A stretch of DNA of 64,000 nt from Dictyostelium discoideum (taxonomy: Eukaryota). The number at the start of each line of letters is the position of its first letter. The first letter of the stretch is position 1. The stretch is from assembly GCA_000004695.1 (NCBI GenBank), contig CM000152.2, forward strand, positions 32,001 through 96,000, read 5' to 3'. The notes under the pieces were generated by a model, which was not told the DNA's origin, searched no databases, and saw nothing but the letters and a program-made list of their open reading frames with translations. The position numbers were made by a program, and so were the translations under genes. Shown one piece after another: positions 4,051 to 61,232 of the stretch.

Positions 4051-4054
<4 letters not shown>

Positions 4055-5113
4055 TCAAGAAGGCACCAGCTAAAACAACTGAAATTGGAAAACCAACTAT
4101 TCGGGTGACCAAAAATAGTGAACCAAATATCGCAATTTTTTTACATCGTCATCATCATCAACATCGTCATCTGGTAGTGATGAATACTCAATGTATTCAT
4201 CATCATCATCATCACCACCATTATCTTCTGGTAATGAAGAATCCTCGATATATTCACCCCATACAACAGTGAAACCGAGTGGTATTTCAAAACTAGCCGC
4301 TCAACATTTAAAGAACCCAGCTCCAGCCACACCAGATTCAAAAGAAGCACCAAGGGTTTCAAGAACATTAAGATCCCAATGTATTAACATCATCCTCTTC
4401 ATCATCTTCATCATCATCGTCATCACCATTATTATCCTCTGGTAGTGAAGAACCCTCAATATATTCATACTATTCAAAAGTAAAACCCAGTGGTGTTTCA
4501 AAACCAGCCGCTCCATATTTAAAGAAACCACAAGAAAATTGGCCAGCTCCAGCAGCGCCAGGTTCAAAGGAAGCACCAAGATTACTAGATCTCCCAATGT
4601 ATTAACATCATCGTCATCATTGTCATCACCATCATCATTATCATCCTCTTTATCCTCTGGATATGAAGAATCCTCAATATATCAGCCTCTAGATCAGCAA
4701 ACCCCAGTGTTGCTTTAAAACCAGCTCCAAATAAAAAGAAGTCAGCACCAGCCCCTCCACAAACAAGGAAATCACCAAGGGTTTCACGATCAAATTCATC
4801 ATTATCATCATCACCATTATCACCATCATCATCACCATCATTACTGTCATTACAGTCATCACCATCATCCCTATCATTACCGTCATCACCAACACCATCA
4901 TCACCATCATCACCATCATCATCACCATCATCACCATCATCACCATCATCATCACCATCATCACCATCATCACTATCATCACCATCATTATCATCTCTAT
5001 CCTCCCCAAGAGCAAAGAGAGCAGCACCAACCCCTCTAAATTCAAAGGAAGCACCAAGAGTTTCAAAACCAAATTCAAATTCTTCCCCAAGAAAGAAAAA
5101 AAGAAAAATTTAG
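4051..5113 (+). other. putative N-terminal tail region of the H3-variant gene: ATG at 4051 (MVKKAPAKTTEIGKPTIRV..) followed by 3-4 tandem ~200-280 bp units, with frame discontinuities between units
   Basis: Each unit encodes SSG(N/S/Y)EE(S/P)SIY..KPSG(I/V)SK.AA..LK.PAPA.P.SKEAPR(V/L)S, separated by (TCA)n Ser/His/Ile-ambiguous runs. Repeat landmarks: ggtaatgaagaatcctcgatatattca at 4229, ggtagtgaagaaccctcaatatattca at 4441, ggatatgaagaatcctcaatatatcag at 4660; ..aaagaagcaccaagggtttca at 4341, 4567, ~4766 and 5046. Unique segments sit in frames 1,0,1,0,2 successively. The last unit (frame 2: SPSSPSSSPSS..SPRAKRAAPTPLNSKEAPRVSKPNSNSSPRKKKRKI*) stops 2 codons before the histone fold in frame 1. 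An (A)60 tract lies immediately upstream of the ATG. Confidence 0.4.
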
Positions 5114-5385
5114 TATTAAGAGAAATTAAGAAGCACCAAAAATCGGATAAGCTTCTTTTACCTCTACTTTCTTTTTCTCGATTGGCCAGAGAAATTTTGG
5201 ATGGTTTCGGCACTAATTTAAGAATCACTCCTGGTTGTCTTATAGCTCTTCAATATGCTTTTGAATCCCACATGACTTTAATATTGGAGAATTGTGGTAT
5301 TATGGCTTTTTATGGAAAAAGAAAAACCATTAATAGAAGTGATATGAGACTTCATTCGAGAATTTGTCCACTCTTTAAAAATTAA
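5107..5385 (+). CDS. histone H3 variant (divergent, CenH3-like) histone-fold domain; as given it is out of frame with the upstream tail by 1 nt at an A7 run (5093-5107)
   Basis: Frame-1 translation NLVLREIKKHQKSDKLLLPLLSFSRLAREILDGFGTNLRITPGCLIALQYAFESHMTLILENCGIMAFYGKRKTINRSDMRLHSRICPLFKN* aligns residue-for-residue with H3 alphaN-alpha3 ([84 protein letters not shown]). ORF-table entry 5182..5385 is part of it, with a TTG pseudo-start. One extra A in the A-run would fuse ..SPRKKKRK to NLVLREIKK. Confidence 0.75.
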   Translation, partial: NLVLREIKKHQKSDKLLLPLLSFSRLAREILDGFGTNLRITPGCLIALQYAFESHMTLILENCGIMAFYGKRKTINRSDMRLHSRICPLFKN

Positions 5386-7262: not shown

Positions 7263-7306
<44 letters not shown>

Positions 7307-7335
7307 CAAATCATTTTTTGCAAGTAGCAATATCA

Positions 7336-7431
7336 ATGATAATTGTAAAACCTTATTGGGTCGATCATCATGGTAAATAGAATTTAAAAAATAAAAAATA
7401 AACAAAAACATAAAATTAGAAAATGTTTTAA

Positions 7432-7471
<40 letters not shown>

Positions 7472-8956
7472 ATGATACAGGAACACCAATATTTTCAATT
7501 GATGTGCACCCTGATGGTAAAAGATTAGCTACATGTGGAGGAGATTCAAATATAAAAATATGGAATATTGAACCAATATCCGATGAGATTATGGAAGATG
7601 ATGCTGATGATACAAGCAACAAAAGAACAACAACACCAACACCAAAATTATTATATTCAATTAATTATGCACATTCAAAATCAATTAACAGTATCAAATG
7701 GTCAAAAGATGGTAGATATTTAGCATCAGTTTCAGATGATAGAGAATGTATAGTTTGGACACTTTCACCATTTCAATCAGCAAATACACCAGAGATTTGG
7801 ACGAGTATAGTTTGCCTTAAAGGTCATAGTGCTGATATCACCGATGTTATTTGGTCAGCAGATAATCAATTTTTAGCTACTTGTAGTTTAGATAAAACAA
7901 TTTTAATTTGGGAAACTACTAAATTTGGTATCTATATATTTTATACTATTTATTTATTTATTTTTATTTATAATTCTTGTTATTCTAACTTTTTTTTTAT
8001 TTATTTTAGGAATTATAAAAAAGTTAGAAAAACAAGAAAAGTTTATAAATGGAATTACATGGGATCCAATGGGTAAATACTTGGTTTCACAATCAGATGG
8101 TTTGATATGTATTTGGAATACTATCAATTGGAATTGTGAAAAAGTAATTAAAGATGTTGTTGGTGGTTTAGATTTAAAATCTTTCTTTTTAAGATCAAGT
8201 TGGACACCAGATTCTAAATATTTTATATCAACTCAAGGTTTTAATAAAAATAATCATTCAGCTATATTAATAGGTAGAGATAATTTTATAAATAATCATT
8301 ATGGTAATCATAATGACAATGGTAATGATGATGGTAATGATGATGGTAATGATGATGGTAATGATGGTAATGATGATGGTAATGATGACACCTTTGAATT
8401 GGTAGGCCATACGGATGTAGTTTCAGTTTCAAAATGTTCTCCAATTATATTTAAAGATAATTCAAATAATTATTTTTCATTAATTTTATTAGGAAGTGTT
8501 GATTCAACATTCTCATTATGGTTATCACCACCTACTACTACTACTACTACTACTACCGATACCAATACCAATAATAGTATTAAGAGATCGCCACCTCAAC
8601 TTATAATGGTTTGTAAAGAAGTTTTTAAAAATACAATACAAGATGTTTCATGGTGTCCTGATGGTTTATCATTTTTTGTTTGTTCAATTGATGGAACTAT
8701 TGCCTATATATCATTGAAACTACATGAAATTAGTGATGGATCACTTCAACCTATCAGTCATAGAGAAAAACAACAATTCTTTAAAAAATCTTATAATTTT
8801 AATTTACCAAATGAAATAGAACTATTTATTCATAAAAGAAATCAAATACCAACTAAACCAATCACTAGAACTACCCAAGAAGTACTATCTACTCAAAAAC
8901 AGTCAACAACTTTAACTGGAAAGAAAAGAATAACACCAGTTACAACTACATATTAA
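7336..8956 (+). CDS. HIRA-like WD40-repeat histone chaperone (HIRA N-terminal beta-propeller homologue, ~476 aa), 3 exons: 7336..7372, 7481..7927, 8010..8956
   Basis: Exon 1 MIIVKPYWVDHH(G) with GTAAAT donor. Exon 2 (acag|) GTPIFSIDVHPDGKRLATCGGDSNIKIWN.. matches the HIRA N-terminus (MKLLKPTWVNHNGKPIFSVDIHPDG..ATGGQDGKIRIWN). The exon 2/3 junction (GTATCT donor at 7928, ..ttttag acceptor at 8008-9) gives ..WETTKFGIIKKLEKQEKFINGITWDPMGKYLVSQSDG, cf. HIRA LTWDPVGKYIASQADD. C-terminal ..GKKRITPVTTTY* resembles the HIRA RRRITP motif. Phases were checked against ORFs 7504..8076 and 7925..8956. Confidence 0.75.
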
Positions 8957-9607
8957 AAATTCTTCTATTTTTGTGGATTTAAATAAACATGGATTTAGAT
9001 TATAATTATAAATTGTTGGGGAACTGTAAAATAACTCTTTTATTAAAACAAAAAAATAAAAAAAAATAATTAAAGAAATTTTTTTATTTTTTAATTTCTC
9101 CAGATATTTTATAATAATTAAAAAAAATATATATTAAGTAAAGAAAAAATAAATAAATAATATATAGTTTAAATTAAATTAAAGAAATTATTATGCTTTA
9201 CAATTTTTTTTTTTTTTTATTTGTTTTTTGGGGATGGGAATTACAATAAAAAAAAAAAAAAAATTTAATTTTTAATAATTATGCAAAATAATAATTTCAA
9301 AAATCGTTTATATTTTTCCGTTTTAAAAATAAAAATAAAAAAAAAAAAAATATGAAAATAAACCTTGAGAAAAGAAAAAAAAAAAACGTTTTTAGTTTAA
9401 TTCTGAAAATTTCCACAAAATAAAAAAAAAATTTTTAACTTTTTTTTTTTTTTTTTTATTCATTTATGATTTCCTACATTTATTAACATAATATAATACT
9501 ATAATTTTATTATTTGGAAGTGCTCTAAATATAAAATTAAATTTATAAAAAATAAAAGAAAAAAAAAAAAAAAACAAAAAAAAAATATAAAGATAATAAA
9601 AACACAA

Positions 9608-9862
9608 ATGCCAATGTTAGATGAAAATGCAGATACATTTCAATTCCAACATTCATTATTTCAATCACCATACTCACCATCTAAAAGTGAAGAAGATGAT
9701 ATATTAAATAATAAAATAAATGGTAATAGCAATAATTGTATCAATATAAATAGCGGTAGTAGTAGTAATGCAACAAATTGGATAGATGATGATAGTTTTA
9801 CTCAACACCATCTATCACCATTAAAAAATCCTCATTTTCAATATCAACACCACAATAATTTT

Positions 9863-10509: not shown

Positions 10510-12486
10510 TTATGAAAAATGAGCATCTAAATAAGAAAATAATTTAAAGTTTGATTTTGTATGTGAAATTAATTTATAATATTCCCAAAGTGCTTTATAG
10601 AGGCCACCAACAGTAACTTTTTTTAAATGAAGAAAACTAATCATTTGAGTTAATTCATCAGTAAATTCTTGATCACCAAATGAAAAGTAAACTAAATCAC
10701 GACCAGCTTGAGAACCAGACATTAATTGAATGATTGATTTCAAATGTTTATCACCACCAAAAACACCACAACCCCAATTACCAGTTGCAACAGGTGGTGG
10801 AATGGTTAGGGAGACTCTATCAAAGAAACCACATAATGATTTATTTAATTCCCTTTCCACAGCAGAAGGTGAAAATTGTTGAAAACTATTACCACCATGT
10901 GGTAACTTTATGGCATCCATAGCTACGATACTTGTTAAACGTCTACCCATTTGATCATATGGTGTTTTGTCAATGTATGGACCATTCCATTGGAAACTAT
11001 CACCATAACCTGTGTATTTACTAAAACGTTGACTTCCAGTGATGATAACAGTTTCATTCTCTTGTAGGATTGATGTGAATAAACAAGATACTAACAACTC
11101 TGGATTAATGACGAATCTAATCTCCTCTTGAACACAACCATAACCTAAAACACCACCACCCAATGATTTATTTGCGAAATCAGCTTGTAACATACCAATG
11201 CCATTATCCTCGATTGTGCCCTCTGTAAAACAAGTTAAATCTCTTAATGTTGCAGTTGATCTCTCCCAATCGGGTATTTCACTCTCATCGAAAACTTGTC
11301 TATGAAATGATATTGTACCAGTTGGTGTTTTTTCGGTTACACATTTAAAATAATGAAATATACATTTTAATTTCGCTGCTCTACTTGGAATCATTTTACC
11401 AGAAAATAATGAATGGAAATTAATTGATGGGAATTTATCTTGATTTCCACCTCTACGATAATGATTATTATTATTGTTATTATTATTTGAAGTTATATTA
11501 CCTTGACGTGGAAAAGTACAAAGGAAAGCATTAGCCAATAAGGATGAAACTTGTTTTTGTGATAAAATGATTTCACGATCCACTGAACTCTTTAATAATG
11601 GTATTGGACGTGCACATAAAAATGGTAATTGTAATGCAAGTTTTATAATCTTTGGTAATGTTTGGCTAAAAAATTCATTGGTTTCACTCTCTGTAAATTC
11701 AGTTTCAAAGAAATCATGTAATCCTTGGAAATCCCAATTACTTCTTTGATTGTATGATTTAACTGCCTCTTCAAATGCTTCAGAGTTTTTGATTGGATTT
11801 GATAAAATCGTATTAATTAAATACCATTTACTTAAATATCTAACCTCTGTAACTGTTTTTATTTCATCTTCAATCGCATAACCACCATCGAGTGTAGTTT
11901 GTGTTAAACCACTCGATTGTCTACTTGTGGTTTTAACAGTAGCTTTATAAACATTATTCTTTGAACATGGTAACTTTACATAATCTGAATTCCAAACATC
12001 AACATATTTCTCACCCTCTAATGGTATTAAAAATATAGTATTACTCTGTTGTTCTTCTAATAAAAAATCATCAATATCTTCCATTTTATTATCTATATTT
12101 GAATTTGAATTTGAATTATTATTTATATTTGATGTTGAAGTTGTTGTTGTCGTCGTTGTCGTATTACTACTTTTTGATCTCTTTACTTCATTTTGATTTG
12201 GTAAATTATCATCAATCAATTGAGTTTGTTCAATTTCATCATTTTGAACTATTTTTGGTTTATTATTCTTATTTGATTCAATCTCTTTCGATATATAATC
12301 CAATTGAGTATTATTTACAATTGTATCTGTTCTTTCAATTTGTTTTCTTTTATTACTATTGTTGTTATTATTATTATTATTGCTATTATTATTTTTATTA
12401 TTATTATTTTCGTTGCTGCTGATGTCGCTTGGTGATTTCACTTTTGTAAAATAGTTTGTAATTTTACCTTTGTCTGGCGAAGACAT
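10510..12486 (-). CDS. poly(ADP-ribose) glycohydrolase (PARG)
   Basis: 658-aa ORF containing the PARG catalytic signature ..GGGVLGYGCVQEEIRFVINPELLVSCLFTSIL.. (GGG-X6-8-QEE) and conserved flanking macrodomain-fold blocks. Confidence 0.8.
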   Translation of the reverse strand: MSSPDKGKITNYFTKVKSPSDISSNENNNNKNNNSNNNNNNNNSNKRKQIERTDTIVNNTQLDYISKEIESNKNNKPKIVQNDEIEQTQLIDDNLPNQNEVKRSKSSNTTTTTTTTSTSNINNNSNSNSNIDNKMEDIDDFLLEEQQSNTIFLIPLEGEKYVDVWNSDYVKLPCSKNNVYKATVKTTSRQSSGLTQTTLDGGYAIEDEIKTVTEVRYLSKWYLINTILSNPIKNSEAFEEAVKSYNQRSNWDFQGLHDFFETEFTESETNEFFSQTLPKIIKLALQLPFLCARPIPLLKSSVDREIILSQKQVSSLLANAFLCTFPRQGNITSNNNNNNNNHYRRGGNQDKFPSINFHSLFSGKMIPSRAAKLKCIFHYFKCVTEKTPTGTISFHRQVFDESEIPDWERSTATLRDLTCFTEGTIEDNGIGMLQADFANKSLGGGVLGYGCVQEEIRFVINPELLVSCLFTSILQENETVIITGSQRFSKYTGYGDSFQWNGPYIDKTPYDQMGRRLTSIVAMDAIKLPHGGNSFQQFSPSAVERELNKSLCGFFDRVSLTIPPPVATGNWGCGVFGGDKHLKSIIQLMSGSQAGRDLVYFSFGDQEFTDELTQMISFLHLKKVTVGGLYKALWEYYKLISHTKSNFKLFSYLDAHFS

Positions 12487-17391: not shown

Positions 17392-17403
17392 TTTTTTTTT
17401 TTT

Positions 17404-18584
17404 TTAAAGGAATAGTTTCATTGAGGTAATAATATCAGAATAAATTGAAGTTGGGGTTTCAAGTTCAGATAACATTGAAGTATTATATTCAATTAAGAAA
17501 CCATTGATTCCACATAAAGTTTCTAAAGCTTCACTTGTTAATTTGATAGAACCACGATTATATTGAGAGGTTTTAGTACAATTCTCGGGGATAGTGGTAC
17601 CAAATATTTCTTTATAGATAGCAGAATTTCTTTGAGCCATATTTCTCCAAATATCATGATAGGTACTATCGATGACTAAATCTTTGATACGATCGGATAG
17701 GAGAGGATCAGGGTTCGATATGAGACCCAAATGATACTCCCAAAGATTACATCTTAGATTATGAGCAAATTTAGCAGCTTTGTAGGGTAATCCATTCACT
17801 CTACTATCGACTAAATCACGATCTTCAATGATTGCACAAATTTCACTATCTCTTGAACCATTTAAACTTCGATCATTGATATTGGCACTACCAATGATTG
17901 CGATTTTATCATCCACTATTAAAACTTTACTATGAACATAGATTTGTTCGGTGAAGATGATATCACCATTGGCATCCCAATTTCTGAGGGAATTGATCGA
18001 TAGGTATTGATCGATGTCCATCTCTGGAAACTTTTTCAAAAGTTCCGTCTTTATACCTGTGATTGATTTCTCTGTATACTTTATAATTAATTGGGTGTCA
18101 ACATCATAGATATCACCTTCACAATGTACTGGTAACAATAGAATCACTCTAAACACTTGATTCAATAATACTGCCTTTTCAATTCTCTTATAGATTGCAA
18201 ATGCAATCTGATTATTTGGTTGAGTGAATCCAACTGATGATATGAAAAATTGGTTTTGTATATATATGAAATGTTGTGATAAATTTATTAAATTTAAATA
18301 TGCCTTATAGATTGAATTCTCTAATACTTGTCCTGCTGACCAACCACAAACTGATCTAACTATTTGAACTTTACATGTACCTCTTTGTTGTGGTGGTAAT
18401 GGTGGTTGATAATGATGATGATGATGATGATGATGTTGTTGTTGTTGTTGATTATTTAATTGATGTGGTAAACTATTATTATGAATTTCACCACTAATAT
18501 TAAAATTTAAATTATTTGAACTTGAATTTAAATTATTATTAGTTGTTGTAGTGGTAGTGGTAGAAGTAGTATTATTATTATTAA

Positions 18585-36796: not shown

Positions 36797-38424
<1,628 letters not shown>

Positions 38425-38946: not shown

Positions 38947-39446
38947 TTAGTATAACAAATTATTTATTATTAACAATATCGCTATTATTAAGTTTATATT
39001 ATAAAATGAAATCGTTAACGATGGGGAAGTTGAAAAAGAATAATAAACTACAGTGAGATTAAATATTGAAAGATTACATTCTTTTGGTTTACAAAATGAG
39101 GATGGTATTAAAGGTGAACTACAAAAAAAGTTTAAACATTTAGCCTCTTCATTACATTTACTCTTGGCAATACATGATGACGGATTAACAGAGTAAATAT
39201 CAGTACAATTGATACGATTTCTAAAAAGACAATCACTAAATACATCTCCACTTTGTTGACAAAAAACTCCTACAAATTTACTTCTAGTCGTACAATATCC
39301 AACACCTGATTGTGAATCGCACTTAAATAAAATAAAATTAGATTGGAACAATATAAGTTTAATCTCTATTATTAATTTTTTTCTTTCTTTACCTTACAAA
39401 ATTCATATTCATTGCAATCATTATTTCCAGTTTTTTTAATTATCAT
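38947..39446 (-). CDS. truncated paralogue of the upstream Cys-rich gene (copy of its last two exons only, 142 aa, no signal peptide); 2 exons: 39446..39393, 39321..38947. Possibly a pseudogene.
   Basis: Exon 1 MIIKKTGNNDCNEYEFCK with a GTAAAG donor; the intron-flanking sequence cctttaccttacaaaattcatattc is shared with the paralogue. Exon 2 is ORF 38947..39351 from its ..ttaag acceptor, CDSQSGVGYCTTRSKFVGVFCQQSGD..CNLSIFNLTVVYYSFSTSPSLTISFYNINLIIAILLIINNLLY*, about 65% identical to exon D of the upstream gene. Confidence 0.5.
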
Positions 39447-43420: not shown

Positions 43421-43714
43421 ATAAATAAATAAAAACAAACAAATAATTAAAAAAAAAAAATACTAATTAAATAACAACTAAATAAATAAATAATAATTAA
43501 AAAAAAAAATAATAAAATAAATAAAATAAAATAAATAAAATAAAAAAATAAAATACTATTTTTTATTACTATTTATTTTATTTAAAATAAATAAATAAAA
43601 AATACTATTTTAAAAACAGCAATAAACAAATAAATAATAAATAATTTAAAATACTATCTTATTTATTTGTTTTATTTTATTTTATTTTATTTTATTTTAT
43701 TTTATTTTATTTTA

Positions 43715-43745
<31 letters not shown>

Positions 43746-44300
43746 CTTTATTTATATAAAAATAATAATTATTTTGGATACTGATTTTTTAAAATACATA
43801 ATATTTAGTTTTAATTTTTTTTTTTTTTTTTTTTCTTTATTTATTTTAAATAATAATTAAAAAAATAAAAATTAAATAAATAAATAATAATAATAATAAT
43901 AATAATGAAAATAATAATTAAATAATTAAAAAAATAATATTTTAAATTATTATTTAATATTTATTTTTTTAATTTTTATTTTTATGTTATTTTAATTAAT
44001 TATAAATAATATTATTAAAAATAATAAAATTTTAATTAATTATTACTACTATTTTCTAATTAAAATATTAAAAATAATAAAATAAATATATAAAATATAC
44101 TATTTTAAATTATTATCTAGTTATTTCATTATTTATTTTTTATTTTTTAATTATTTATTTAATTATTATTTTTTTAATCATTATTTATTTAATTATTATT
44201 TATTTAAAATAAATAAAGAAAAAAATTACCACTAAACAATATGTATTTTAAAAAATCAGTATCCAATAAAGTAATTATTTATCGATTATCGCCCCAATAA

Positions 44301-44344
<44 letters not shown>

Positions 44345-52116: not shown

Positions 52117-52465
52117 TCATTCCATTTTAATTTTATTTTTATTAACCCATAATTTTGTCACATCTGTTTTAAAATTTAAATAAATCATATAAATATTCAT
52201 TTTTTTTAAAATAAATATTATTATAATTATTTTTAATTTTAATTATATTTTTAACCTTTATTAAATACATATATTTTTTCCATATCAAATAAAATTTTTA
52301 TAAATTAATTAAAACAAAATAATAAAAAAATTATAAAGTAAAAAAAAAAAAAAAAAAAAATTATTGTTTTAATAAATTAATATTTTACAGAATATAAAGG
52401 TATAATAAAAACTATTAAAAGTTGTTTTATTTATATATATTTATTTAATTTTTAATTTTTTTTTT

Positions 52466-52632
52466 TACAAGTCTTCTTTGTCGTATTTTTCATAGAAAGC
52501 AACTCTTTCTCTTTGCTTTTTTTTATCAACGCCATATTTAAAGAAACAACCTGCAATTGAACCTAAAATAAGGGCAACTCCAATATCTTGAACGAGTTGA
52601 GATTTAACAACTTTTGGTAATGCGTGTGTCAT
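52466..52632 (-). CDS. cytochrome c oxidase subunit VII isoform (cxgE/cxgS tandem-pair member); the sequence as given is 167 nt, so the conserved C-terminus is out of frame
   Basis: Minus strand. From the ATG at 52632, MTHALPKVVKSQLVQDIGVALILGSIAGCFFKYGVDKKKQRE.. is about 50% identical to the downstream paralogue (MSHALPALIK..KDIGYGLLLGIIPGVWFKYQ..). The shared C-terminal FYxxYDK motif (SFYEKYDKEDL* vs EDFYAAYDKRN*) is reached only in the -1 frame. The straight-through frame gives 59 aa ending ..RVLSMKNTTKKTCKKKN*. The break lies at or near a T8 run (52517-52524). Confidence 0.55.
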
Positions 52633-53493: not shown

Positions 53494-53655
53494 TTAATTT
53501 CTCTTATCATAGGCAGCGTAAAAATCTTCTCTTTTTTGGATAGATTGGCCAATTTGATATTTGAACCAAACACCTGGGATGATACCTAAAAGGAGACCAT
53601 AACCAATATCTTTGGTGATATGCATTTTAATGAGAGCTGGTAATGCGTGGGACAT
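53494..53655 (-). CDS. cytochrome c oxidase subunit VII isoform (second member of the cxgE/cxgS oxygen-regulated tandem pair), 53 aa, intact
   Basis: ATG 53655..53653. MSHALPALIKMHITKDIGYGLLLGIIPGVWFKYQIGQSIQKREDFYAAYDKRN* is a single-TM small subunit. The two genes share orientation and lie about 860 bp apart, matching the published tandem arrangement of the Dictyostelium COX VIIe/VIIs genes. Which copy is e and which is s was not resolved. Confidence 0.6.
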   Translation of the reverse strand: MSHALPALIKMHITKDIGYGLLLGIIPGVWFKYQIGQSIQKREDFYAAYDKRN

Positions 53656-59595: not shown

Positions 59596-59975
59596 TTAAT
59601 AACGTGGCAAATAAAATGGTTTGATGTACTGATGAAAAGCAATATCTCTATCAGTAATAGTTTTTCTTTTTCCATGAGCAGCCATTATAGCACAATCGGT
59701 CATTATAATATTCATGTAGCATTCAAAAGCAGTACGAAGAGCATGAATAGCACCGACACTCATTCTATAGCTTTTAGGATCGGTCCAAGCCCACAAAATC
59801 TGTCTTTTGATTTCTCTCAAAACTAAATTTCTTCTCTTAATTGGTTTTTGGGGATCATTAAAAGCTGGAGGTGAAACTGTTGGTCATCAGAAGATAATGG
59901 TGATAATGATGATGGTGATAATTGTTGATGGAAAGATCTCTGTAATCTTTTTTGCCTGCCCCTTGTTGGATTCAT
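59596..59975 (-). pseudogene. second divergent histone H3-variant paralogue. It lacks the alpha-N helix and has a 1-nt frame break between the N-tail and the histone fold (380 nt, not a multiple of 3). Probably a pseudogene, or a gene with a homopolymer-length error.
   Basis: ATG 59975 in AAAAATG context gives MNPTRGRQKRLQRSFHQQLSPSSLSPLSSDDQQFHLQL... In the -1 frame, ..SPPAFNDPQKPIKRRNLVLREIKRQILWAWTDPKSYRMSVGAIHALRTAFECYMNIIMTDCAIMAAHGKRKTITDRDIAFHQYIKPFYLPRY* (ORF 59596..59820). It shares the junction motif (K/R)RNLVLREIK with the 5.1-kb H3 variant. Relative to that gene, residues KHQKSDKLLLPLLSFSRLARE are missing, so the two REI repeats are fused. One extra T in tttt (59860-63 on the + strand) would restore a 126-aa ORF. 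Confidence 0.6.
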
Positions 59976-60467
59976 TTTTTATTTTTTTTTTTTTGTAAAT
60001 AAAATTCCTTTATTTATTTTTTTTTTTTATTATTTTTTTTTTTTTTATTATTTTGTTATTTTTTTTATAATTATTATTTTTATAATTATTCCCATTGAAA
60101 TCTAAAATTTGAACTAATGAAAAAAAGAAATGTTTTTCATATTTTTATATCTTTTTTTTTTTTTATATCGAGAAAAAATTAAAAAATGTTTAAATAAAAA
60201 AGATTTTTGGTAGTTTTTTTTTAATGATGTTCCTTGAAATTTTTATTATATTAACACTTGTCATATTATTATTAACACTTGTCATTTTTATTATTTTTTT
60301 TATTTTTATTTTTTTATTTTCTTTTTTTTTTTCCCAATGGGCCAAAAGACTTTAAAAAAAAAAGATAATTAATTTTATTTAAAATAAAAATCAATTATCA
60401 GCTATGATTTTTGAAATTATTTTATTTTAAAATAATATTTTCTACTTATTATTATTTTTTTTAATTG

Positions 60468-60794
60468 ATTATCACCACAATGACTGTTGTCAAACATCAC
60501 TGGTCCAAATCTCTGGTGGATTTAGTGATTGAAATGGCGAAAATGTCCAAACCATACATTTTCTATAATCTGAAACTGTTGCAGCAAATATGTCTACCAT
60601 CTTTTGACCATTTGATACTGTAAATTGATTTTGAATGTGCTCATTTAATTGAATGTATTAATTTTGGTGTTGTTGTTCTTTTGTTACTTATATCATCAGA
60701 ATCATCCTCCATAAGCTCATAAGATATTGGTTCCATATTCTATAATTTTATATTTTAATCTCCACCACATGTAGCTAATCTTTTACCATCAGGG
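60468..60794 (-). pseudogene. relic partial copy of exon 2 of the HIRA-like gene (~85% nt identity to 7505..7845), carrying an in-frame stop and indels
   Basis: Minus strand reads ..YYPDGKRLATCGG.. then ..MEPISYELMEDDSDDISNKRTTTPKLIHSIK* ..SIKWSKDGRHICCNSFRL*KMYGLDIFAISITKSTRDLDQ... Compare HIRA-like EPISDEIMEDDADDTSNKRTTTPTPKLLYSINYAHSKSINSIKWSKDGRYLASVSDDRECIVWTLSPFQSANTPEIWTS. It stands out as a non-AT-rich island in otherwise AT-rich intergenic DNA. Confidence 0.6.
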
Positions 60795-61232
60795 TAGTAA
60801 TAAATAAAAATATAGGTGTTGCTATTTGATTTTATTGAAAATAGAAAAAGATTGGAAAATTATAATTTCATATTTTTGTTAGTTTTTTTTTTTAATTCCA
60901 TTTAGCATTATGATAAACCCAATAAGGTTTTAGAATTATCATTGATATTTGTGAAAAATGATTAAAAAAAAAAAAAAAAAAAAAACATTTCAAATAAATA
61001 TCAAATACACACGTGTGTACCATTAAATAAAATAAATATTTAAAAAAAAAAAAAAAGAAAAAAAAAAAAATAAAAAAAAAAAAGCAAACCAATTTTGATT
61101 TGAGTTGTTTAGAAAATTAAAAATCTACAACAACCGTTAGTTATATAAATATTATTATTTTATTTTTATTTTTATTTTATTTTTATTTTTATTTATTTAC
61201 AAAAGAGTCTATATATATATGAATTATAAAAA

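Follow-up and report, generated by a model that had tools for sequence, protein, structure and literature searches.

The annotated histone gene h3v2 of Dictyostelium discoideum AX4 is probably a duplicated long-tailed histone H3 variant gene in decay

The locus considered here lies on the minus strand of a stretch of 64,000 nucleotides (nt) of chromosome 3 of Dictyostelium discoideum AX4 (contig CM000152.2 of assembly GCA_000004695.1, positions 32,001 to 96,000 of the forward strand), which we refer to as the window and whose own numbering is used throughout. An open reading frame (ORF) at 59596-59883(-) encodes a divergent histone H3-like fold and belongs to the annotated gene h3v2, 'Histone H3.v2' (DDB_G0277979, the identifier given for h3v2 by Dubin et al. 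2010, PMC2995078). The database protein of 89 amino acids (aa), entered as 'Histone H3.v2' or as the histone H3 domain-containing protein of D. discoideum AX4 and carried in NCBI, UniProt and dictyBase, matches the window at 100%, and the model that we rebuilt from 2 exons (60285-60256 and 59835-59596) separated by a 420-nt intron (60255-59836) translates exactly to it. The fold ORF matches Pfam family PF00125 Histone with 41.7 bits (E = 1.6e-10, cut-off 26.4), the match spanning only profile positions 54-117 of 122, with the complete H3 helix set absent, and its best PDB matches, at E values of 4e-6 to 1e-3, are Cse4 and H3 chains, the similarity being weak (22.9 bits). Judged by its sequence, h3v2 falls into the H3 branch of PF00125, but its helix set is incomplete and its ORF interrupted. 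As set out below, h3v2 is most probably a non-processed (duplicated) pseudogene, namely a decaying copy of a long-tailed H3 variant.

The fold ORF reads as a remnant consisting of the junction with the N-terminal tail, the start of helix alpha-N, the end of alpha-1, loop L1, alpha-2, L2 and alpha-3. In its frame, a TGA lies directly upstream (59886-59884), and no in-frame ATG precedes M40. A second ORF, rich in Arg, Ser and Pro, overlaps the fold ORF with an offset of 1 nt (Table 1) and, downstream of approximately 59884, runs out of frame to a TAG at 59825-59823. ORF reading thus confirmed what a preliminary description of this DNA had proposed, namely an H3-like fold accompanied by a Ser/Pro-containing N-tail that is 1 nt out of frame with it. 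Alignment of the 5' part of the tail ORF with the start of a single-gene orthologue (MKRGGQKRSFNQQLSPSLSSDN) further established that this ORF is the ancestral N-tail. A continuous ORF from start to fold is absent at h3v2, both in AX4 and in an independent assembly of the species.

The orthologue resides at a locus (L001) of assembly GCA_054859385.1, and its protein, KAM9952583.1 (P0011; hypothetical protein ACTFIR_007637, 242 aa), was the sole specific relative in a profile search of 1.84 billion representative proteins. L001 is collinear with the window over a Rac-like gene, a fragment of a HIRA-like gene (psiHIRA), the h3v2 orthologue, a Syf1-like gene and RPL14. Because the flanks are 82-89% identical to the window and the flanking genes differ by a synonymous divergence (dS) of approximately 0.09-0.11, the isolate, though labelled D. 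discoideum, belongs to a sister lineage; Holland et al. 2025 (PMC12745789; Nanopore + Illumina) is the probable source of the new Dictyostelium assemblies used here. At L001, the tail ATG and the fold are in one gene, in which the start MKRGGQKRSFNQQLSPSLSSDN, matching MNPTRGRQKRLQRSFHQQLSPSSLSPLSSDD of AX4, is followed by approximately 170 residues of KKPAPxVSPxKEPAP-type repeats and then by TPASNDHQKPIKRRNLVLREIKR. Junction and fold are 92.6% identical between AX4 and L001 at the nucleotide level, and the two have in common the start M..GxQKR..SFxQQLSPS.., the junction QKPIKRRNLVLREIKR and the C-terminus. As the orthologue shows, tail and fold would once have formed a single-exon gene.

Local alignments to L001 place the frame break of AX4 at approximately 59883/59884, where the 5' tail, read in the ATG frame, meets one 'APxVSP' repeat unit, read in the fold frame, out of register. 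About 350-400 nt of tail repeats are missing from AX4 relative to L001, and at the same spot AX4 has a 1-nt gap relative to a paralogue in the window (GAAGCACCAAGAG in the paralogue vs GATG-ACCAACAG in AX4). An additional 36 nt of tail (KKPAPRSSRITP) are missing from AX4 in frame. The fold frame of AX4, PPAFNDPQKPIKRR, corresponds to TPASNDHQKPIKRR of the orthologue, and since the AX4 sequence upstream of the fold in this frame (PTVSPPAFNDPQKPIKRR) is in the true ancestral frame, the break has to lie upstream of 59871. The run of 4 T at 59860-59863 had previously been suggested as the possible site of the frameshift. This run, however, is in frame with the orthologue, its codons aligning with GCT TCA AAT (A-S-N) of L001 (PPAFNDPQKP in AX4 vs TPASNDHQKP in L001), and the break maps instead to the tail collapse at approximately 59883/59884.

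An independent Nanopore + Illumina assembly of a D. discoideum laboratory strain, GCA_054883475.1, is represented here by 2 loci (L005 and L002) and is 99.7% identical to the window, nearly all differences being in the lengths of long homopolymers. At the h3v2 locus (in L005), the two assemblies differ only at 59970 and 59998, which may reflect either a real strain difference or an assembly error; the former turns Asn2 of the relic tail ORF into Lys, the residue that is also found in the orthologue. The entire interval 59596-59969 is identical, including the junction at 59883-59888, the T4 run and a 57-nt deletion within the fold. Because the independent assembly carries the same lesions, these are not sequencing errors, and the homopolymer error that had been suggested as the source of the frame break is dispelled by the T4 run being identical in it. 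The annotation of this assembly calls no gene at h3v2.

The second lesion is the loss from AX4 of exactly 57 nt (19 codons), which correspond to bases 10561-10617 of L001. In the orthologue, the lost codons read LQKSDKLLLPSLPFSRLV followed by a stop and are equivalent to H3 residues Y54-R72. In the nucleosome structure, alpha-N and alpha-1 reportedly extend over residues ~44-57 and ~63-77, respectively. The loss of Y54-R72 takes away the final turn of alpha-N, the linker and ~2.5 turns at the start of alpha-1, such that the retained start of alpha-N (NLVLREIKR) is fused to the end of alpha-1. The preliminary description had reported that 21 residues between two REI motifs, and with them alpha-N, were deleted: a block is indeed missing, but it comprises 19 residues, and alpha-N has lost its last turn while keeping its N-terminal part. 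Recombination between two REI-coding repeats, which had been invoked as the origin of the deletion, was rejected, because the orthologue reads RLV, a stop and QIL at this position and has no second REI and because the microhomology at the deletion junction amounts to only approximately 2 nt ('ac').

The orthologue is itself damaged. L001 holds the segment comprising alpha-N, linker and alpha-1, which reads NLVLREIKRLQKSDKLLLPSLPFSRLV, a stop and QILWAW, the TAA at 10615-10617 lying within alpha-1. Its ATG frame is open for only 46 codons, there being a frameshift close to a run of 5 T, and the NCBI model (L001 10001-10824; 824 nt gene, 729 nt coding sequence) reaches 242 aa only by bridging the TAA and the frameshift with 'introns' of 72 nt and 23 nt. 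Thus, in the one other lineage examined for h3v2, the gene appears to have been disabled independently, the conserved alpha-N/alpha-1 segment being deleted in AX4 and interrupted by a stop in L001. More generally, automatic models in the new Dictyostelium assemblies can hide pseudogenes by means of impossible mini-introns, which calls for caution among users of the corresponding proteomes.

Table 1. Features of the h3v2 locus and of related loci in the window
Feature	Position	Strand	Details
H3-like histone-fold ORF	59596..59883	-	95 codons + TAA (stop 59598-59596); reads PTVSPPAFNDPQKPIKRRNLVLREIKRQILWAWTDPKSYRMSVGAIHALRTAFECYMNIIMTDCAIMAAHGKRKTITDRDIAFHQYIKPFYLPRY
Ancestral N-tail ORF	59823..59975	-	50 codons, Arg/Ser/Pro; ATG 59975, starts MNPTRGRQKRLQRSFHQQLSPSSLSPLSSDD; TAG 59825-59823
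Frame-break junction GATGAC/CAACAG	59883..59888 (motif 59888-59877)	-	From local alignments to L001
T4 run	59860..59863	-	In frame: GCT TTT AAT = A-F-N
Junction of the 57-nt in-frame deletion	59802..59803	-	From AX4/L001 DNA alignment and five-way protein alignment
Annotated exon 1 of h3v2	60256..60285	-	MTSVNNNMTS, 10 codons; probably not a real exon
Annotated intron of h3v2, GTTAAT...TTAAG	59836..60255	-	420 nt; 3' 140 nt are ancestral tail coding sequence
Annotated exon 2 of h3v2	59596..59835	-	Rebuilt model
Peptide MTSVNNNMTSRRNLVLR			Belongs to the predicted annotated h3v2 product
psiHIRA, degraded 5' copy of the HIRA-like gene	60470..60985	-	Directly upstream of h3v2
Functional HIRA-like WD40 gene, 5' end	7285..7837	+	Source of the psiHIRA fragment
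Paralogous H3-variant locus ('5.1-kb gene')	4051..5385	+	Fold 5089-5385 complete; Ser/Pro-rich tail broken

When the fold was used as a tblastn query, one other locus was found in the window, at 5107-5376(+) (E = 8e-13); it lies within the paralogous locus mentioned above, hereafter the 5.1-kb locus. That the two loci are paralogues, as the preliminary description had held, was substantiated by nucleotide alignment: they show 75% DNA identity over 101 nt, display the derived motifs NLVLREIK, GKRKTI and IMA, and their nucleotide homology reaches back into the tail, whereas a tblastn search with human H3 matched the 5.1-kb locus only, h3v2 not being matched at E<=10. Taken together, these observations set the similarity above generic H3 conservation. 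Between the paralogues, the ratio of nonsynonymous to synonymous divergence (omega) is approximately 0.75 and dS approximately 0.6, with the alpha-N/alpha-1 segment and L2 standing out at 73-87% nucleotide identity. Gene conversion was considered as a source of the high alpha-N identity and set aside, because L2 is equally conserved; the pattern looks like functional constraint.

The fold of the 5.1-kb locus scores 58 bits against PDB H3 chains and has an L1 of canonical length, but no protein matching it was found in the protein database. Its Ser/Pro-rich tail of 1 kb switches frame repeatedly. We examined this locus in 3 other assemblies. In GCA_054883475.1, it is identical to AX4 over its entire length. 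In GCA_054859355.1 (L003 17481-19184(-)), which is separated from AX4 by a dS of 0.05-0.09, it is an intact single-exon ORF of 567 aa, which starts with MVKKSPAKKTEIGKPT, continues with a Ser/Pro-rich repetitive tail and RKKKRKNLVLREIKKHQKSDKLLLPLLSFSRLAREILDGFGNNLRV, ends in CPLFRN and matches Pfam Histone with 66.9 bits. Relative to this ORF, AX4 carries 5 frame-breaking indels (-31 at 4125, -2 at 4374, -10 at 4586, -1 at 4682 and +5 at 5081), and the comparison yields an omega of 0.28 for the fold (p = 0.014 vs neutral) and of 0.89 for the tail. In GCA_054859205.1 ('D. cf. discoideum', L004 ~17392-17640(-)), only a truncated remnant is present, in which a (GATGTT)n array takes the place of the tail, NLVLREI is no longer present and alpha-1 has a 15-nt deletion. 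On these sequences, the 5.1-kb locus is evidently a pseudogene in AX4, where it represents a third H3-like locus that is unannotated and outside the list of H3-like genes in the literature.

The pseudogene reading of h3v2, which had also been advanced in the preliminary description, rests on several comparisons: the out-of-frame tail and the 57-nt fold deletion were recognized relative to L001 and the paralogue, are real in GCA_054883475.1, and the orthologue is disabled by the alpha-1 TAA and a tail frameshift. The ancestral form would have been a single-exon gene encoding a long, repetitive N-tail rich in Arg, Lys, Ser and Pro, the junction QKPIKRRNLVLREIKR and a full fold of alpha-N, alpha-1, alpha-2 and alpha-3. 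In the AX4 lineage, most of the repetitive tail has collapsed, with the ends being joined out of frame at approximately 59883/59884, and the original ATG at 59975 no longer reads into the fold. In addition, 36 nt more of the tail and the 57 nt equivalent to Y54-R72, the most conserved part of the family, have been lost in frame. If so, a protein combining the tail with a competent H3 fold could not be made from the original start, and the 89-aa protein would depend on an exon and an intron that resemble a rescue by gene prediction. h3v2 would still look coding because its decay is recent. The surroundings fit such decay, with the pseudogene psiHIRA directly upstream and the paralogue a pseudogene in AX4.

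The substitution pattern is compatible with relaxed constraint, with reservations. Over junction and fold (90 codons), AX4 and L001 differ with a nonsynonymous divergence (dN) of 0.073, a dS of 0.098 and an omega of 0.75; 15 of the 20 changes are nonsynonymous, which fits neutrality (p = 0.58) and rejects an omega of 0.1 (p = 2e-5), whereas the neighbouring Syf1-like and Rac-like genes evolve with omega values of 0.09 and 0.13, respectively. Several points weigh against a pseudogene. The dN/dS estimate for h3v2 is based on 20 substitutions only, and H3 variants that evolve fast yet are functional, such as the centromeric variant CenH3, typically show a high omega as well. The fold has diverged between AX4 and L001 by 7.4%, compared to 16% for the adjacent psiHIRA (Fisher p = 0.0016), such that either some constraint persisted after the lineages split or local mutation rates differ. 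Moreover, no lesion is demonstrably common to AX4 and L001, the 57-nt deletion preserves the frame and the fold ORF is still uninterrupted over 95 codons. On the simplest reading of these sequences, the gene was under some constraint when the lineages separated, and each of them afterwards lost it, independently and recently.

What keeps h3v2 among coding genes is its two-exon model, which we consider doubtful because exon 1 is not conserved, the end of the intron is coding-like and the splice donor is atypical. A 21-nt unit (ATGACAAGTGTTAATAATAAT) occurs twice in tandem at 60244-60285(-), in spacer DNA of 10-18% GC, and exon 1 is its first copy. Neither the exon-1 30-mer nor a 12-mer from it was found in the orthologous locus L001, from which the AT-rich stretch of approximately 340 nt holding exon 1 is missing and where the gap between the HIRA fragment and the ATG is only approximately 30 nt. 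Within the annotated intron, the GC content is 0.107 over 59976-60255 vs 0.371 over 59836-59975, the latter exceeding the 99th percentile (0.35; mean 0.15) of non-ORF 140-nt windows of the stretch. At the ATG at 59975, GC jumps from 0.04 to 0.3-0.4 and holds that level past the annotated boundary between intron and exon. Position +3 of the donor, GTTAAT, is a T; two real introns seen in the window begin GTATGT and GTAAAT. Dictyostelium introns reportedly average approximately 146 nt in length and approximately 87% A+T. A 420-nt intron with a coding-like 3' end would thus be exceptional for Dictyostelium, and the model would seem to be a gene prediction by which an ATG is provided and the frame break bypassed.

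The strongest competing explanation, which we nevertheless regard as unlikely, is that the 89-aa H3.v2 is real and made as annotated, exon 1 having been recruited after the loss of the tail, and that it has a non-nucleosomal, possibly cytoplasmic role. The presence of the protein in 3 databases, the intact ORF of exon 2, the slower divergence of the fold compared to psiHIRA and the in-frame nature of the 57-nt deletion, which would have removed the TAA of the orthologue if that TAA were ancestral, are in line with this possibility. An AF2 (AlphaFold2) model of the product contains 3 helices, the first of them fused, but this monomer model, with a pLDDT (predicted local distance difference test) of 69, is not usable as evidence, and a Foldseek search with it against the PDB returned nothing significant (best E ~1). 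On the other side stand an exon 1 that is part of a 21-nt tandem repeat in an AT-rich spacer and is not conserved in the orthologue, an intron 3 times the usual Dictyostelium length with 37% GC at its 3' end and a GTTAAT donor, an omega of approximately 0.75, an orthologue disabled by a stop and the absence of a gene call in the independent annotation.

Published data bear on the same alternative. Dubin et al. (PMC2995078), whose list of H3-like genes contains only h3v1 and h3v2, amplified h3v2 from genomic DNA for a fusion to green fluorescent protein (GFP) and obtained a detectable, non-nuclear GFP-H3v2 signal. This signal could be taken to speak for a real protein, but it does not discriminate, because N-terminal GFP on genomic h3v2 would fluoresce in the cytosol whether spliced or unspliced and hence is no proof of a protein. 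The published sizes of the model also disagree (96 aa vs 89 aa). A later histone survey omitted h3v2 from H3 trees on localisation grounds. In the literature on h3v2, we found no mention of the out-of-frame tail, the 57-nt deletion or the 5.1-kb paralogue, and DDB_G0277979 was not listed in the supplements of Dictyostelium RNA sequencing papers, which is uninformative.

We consider it highly unlikely that h3v2 is a transcribed pseudogene with a role at the RNA level, for instance as a source of antisense or small RNA acting against the paralogue or other H3 genes: the A-rich run before the ATG at 59975 provides a plausible promoter context and the identity to the paralogue is 62-75%, nothing in this being specific, but no target in AX4 is near-identical except one that is itself a pseudogene there. 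Even less probable, to the point of being far-fetched, is that tail and fold are joined during expression, by programmed ribosomal frameshifting or by splicing of a 44-nt intron (GTTTCA...AAGAG), into a product of approximately 110 aa. A 44-nt GT...AG interval (2 mod 3) does lie within the frame overlap; however, known introns of Dictyostelium are far longer than 44 nt, and the interval has a coding-like GC content of 36% and is kept as in-frame codons in the orthologue. Frameshifting would have to do without a slippery heptamer or a stimulatory structure at the junction, and under either mechanism the joined product would still be devoid of H3 Y54-R72. A search for introns across the frame overlap yielded only GT..AG intervals of 13, 42 and 44 nt, which were rejected as too short, GC-rich and corresponding to codons in the orthologue. 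Finally, that the gene is an intact single-exon H3 variant and its frame break a mistake of sequencing or assembly in the AX4 reference, as two ORFs 1 nt out of register with a T4 run in their overlap might suggest, is next to inconceivable given that the independent assembly is identical across 59596-59969, the T4 run keeps the reading frame of the orthologue, no homopolymer is present at the junction and an intact 126-aa product was not found among 5.8 billion protein clusters.

Considered together with the probable pseudogene status of h3v2 in AX4, the paralogue suggests how this family evolves. The sequences show a birth-and-death mode of evolution for these H3 variants with long tails, on a timescale that is very short (dS of approximately 0.05-0.13 between isolates). 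The 5.1-kb member seems to be alive in one isolate and dead in AX4, in the independent D. discoideum assembly and in 'D. cf. discoideum', and h3v2 looks dead or dying in both lineages examined. Based on the intact 567-aa ORF of GCA_054859355.1 and the purifying selection on its fold, we tentatively put forward, while holding it to be rather doubtful, that H3v2 and the 5.1-kb locus are relics of a hitherto undescribed group of H3 variants in the D. discoideum species complex, long-tailed and evolving fast, which would still function in some wild isolates while being lost in the NC4-derived laboratory lineage. If true, members of one nominal species would differ in whether they possess a histone variant at all. 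In a more radical version, the alpha-N-less 89-aa product may be expressed via annotated exon 1 and have acquired a new, non-nucleosomal function.

Directly upstream of h3v2 lies psiHIRA, which copies the initial ~550 nt of the HIRA-like gene and matches 7285-7837 at 79% identity over 557 nt. It is damaged by stops, frameshifts and a change of the splice donor from GT to CT. The functional copy starts at approximately 7340(+), 2 kb from the 5.1-kb paralogue, and the Pfam domain Beta-prop_CAF1B_HIR1 was matched on its orthologue in L004. psiHIRA is also present in L001, where the gene call at 8422-9800, a Rac-like model, appears to extend into it. Because AX4 and L001 share a stop at the same Tyr codon, psiHIRA was already dead in their common ancestor. 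The HIRA copies are 79-86% identical vs 62-65% for the H3 copies (fold), which indicates that psiHIRA is much younger than the H3 duplication. A single segmental duplication giving rise to both the H3 pair and the HIRA/psiHIRA pair was considered and is unlikely in view of these different identities and of the order of the elements, which is reversed relative to the H3 gene.

Several other observations were made in the window. An imperfect palindrome occupies 43480-44344, with a self-inverted match at 43702-44344 (74% over ~690 nt) in the most AT-rich part (GC 0.11-0.13). A direct repeat of approximately 400 nt (36909-37301 and 39034-39426, 78% identity, 2.1 kb apart) may represent paralogous exons or genes. 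Two small paralogous ORFs, at 52465-52632(-) (55 aa; MTHALPKVVKSQL...) and 53494-53655(-) (53 aa; MSHALPALIKMHI...), are not called as genes in the annotations of this region in the new assemblies; they resemble the pair of isoforms that Dictyostelium has of cytochrome c oxidase subunit VII. Another ORF in the neighbourhood matches the poly(ADP-ribose) glycohydrolase EAL68144.1 of AX4 without any difference.

The value of these results is practical rather than conceptual. Both catalogues and publications already include h3v2; reading it as a pseudogene instead is ordinary biology and amounts to a correction of annotation. New are the corrected anatomy (the site of the break and the deletion), the unannotated third H3-like locus of AX4 and the intact 567-aa member in a wild isolate. 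As one of two listed divergent H3-like genes, h3v2 of this widely used model organism propagates into catalogues and phylogenies of histones; should it be a pseudogene whose exon and intron are artefacts, re-annotation and removal from histone analyses would be called for. The isolate with the intact 567-aa member would be the natural place to study the role of the variant.

Compared with canonical H3 and H3.3 (PDB 1KX3, 1AOI), h3v2 has the same PF00125 fold, with LREI of alpha-N, alpha-2, L2 and alpha-3 being alignable, but it is without the equivalent of Y54-R72, without a tail carrying K4, K9, K27 and K36 and without an in-frame start, and the similarity amounts to approximately 23 bits. 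The database h3v2 occupies the same locus; it is presented there as a spliced coding gene, whereas we find a disabled single-exon gene. KAM9952583.1, the orthologue, differs from AX4 in keeping the tail of approximately 170 residues and the 57 nt, while carrying a TAA in alpha-1 and a tail frameshift. With the 5.1-kb paralogue and its 567-aa orthologue, h3v2 has in common the NLVLREIK junction, GKRKTI in L2 and a Ser/Pro-rich tail with ..APRVS.. units, at a nucleotide identity of 62-65% in the fold and 73-83% in alpha-N/alpha-1; the AX4 paralogue, unlike h3v2, is damaged in the tail by five frameshifts and has a complete fold. h3v2 is not the Dictyostelium CenH3, which is H3v1 (DDB_G0291185, 619 aa); GFP-H3v1 marks centromeres, whereas GFP-H3v2 is not nuclear (PMC2995078). 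Two features that might recall CenH3 are not specific to it, namely an L1 that exceeds the L1 of H3 by 2 residues in the lineage of H3v2, though not in the paralogue, and the long divergent tail, which is found in the orthologue and the paralogue. The likeness between H3v1 and h3v2 is one of architecture, both combining a long, low-complexity N-tail, ancestral in the case of h3v2, with a divergent, fast-evolving C-terminal H3 fold.

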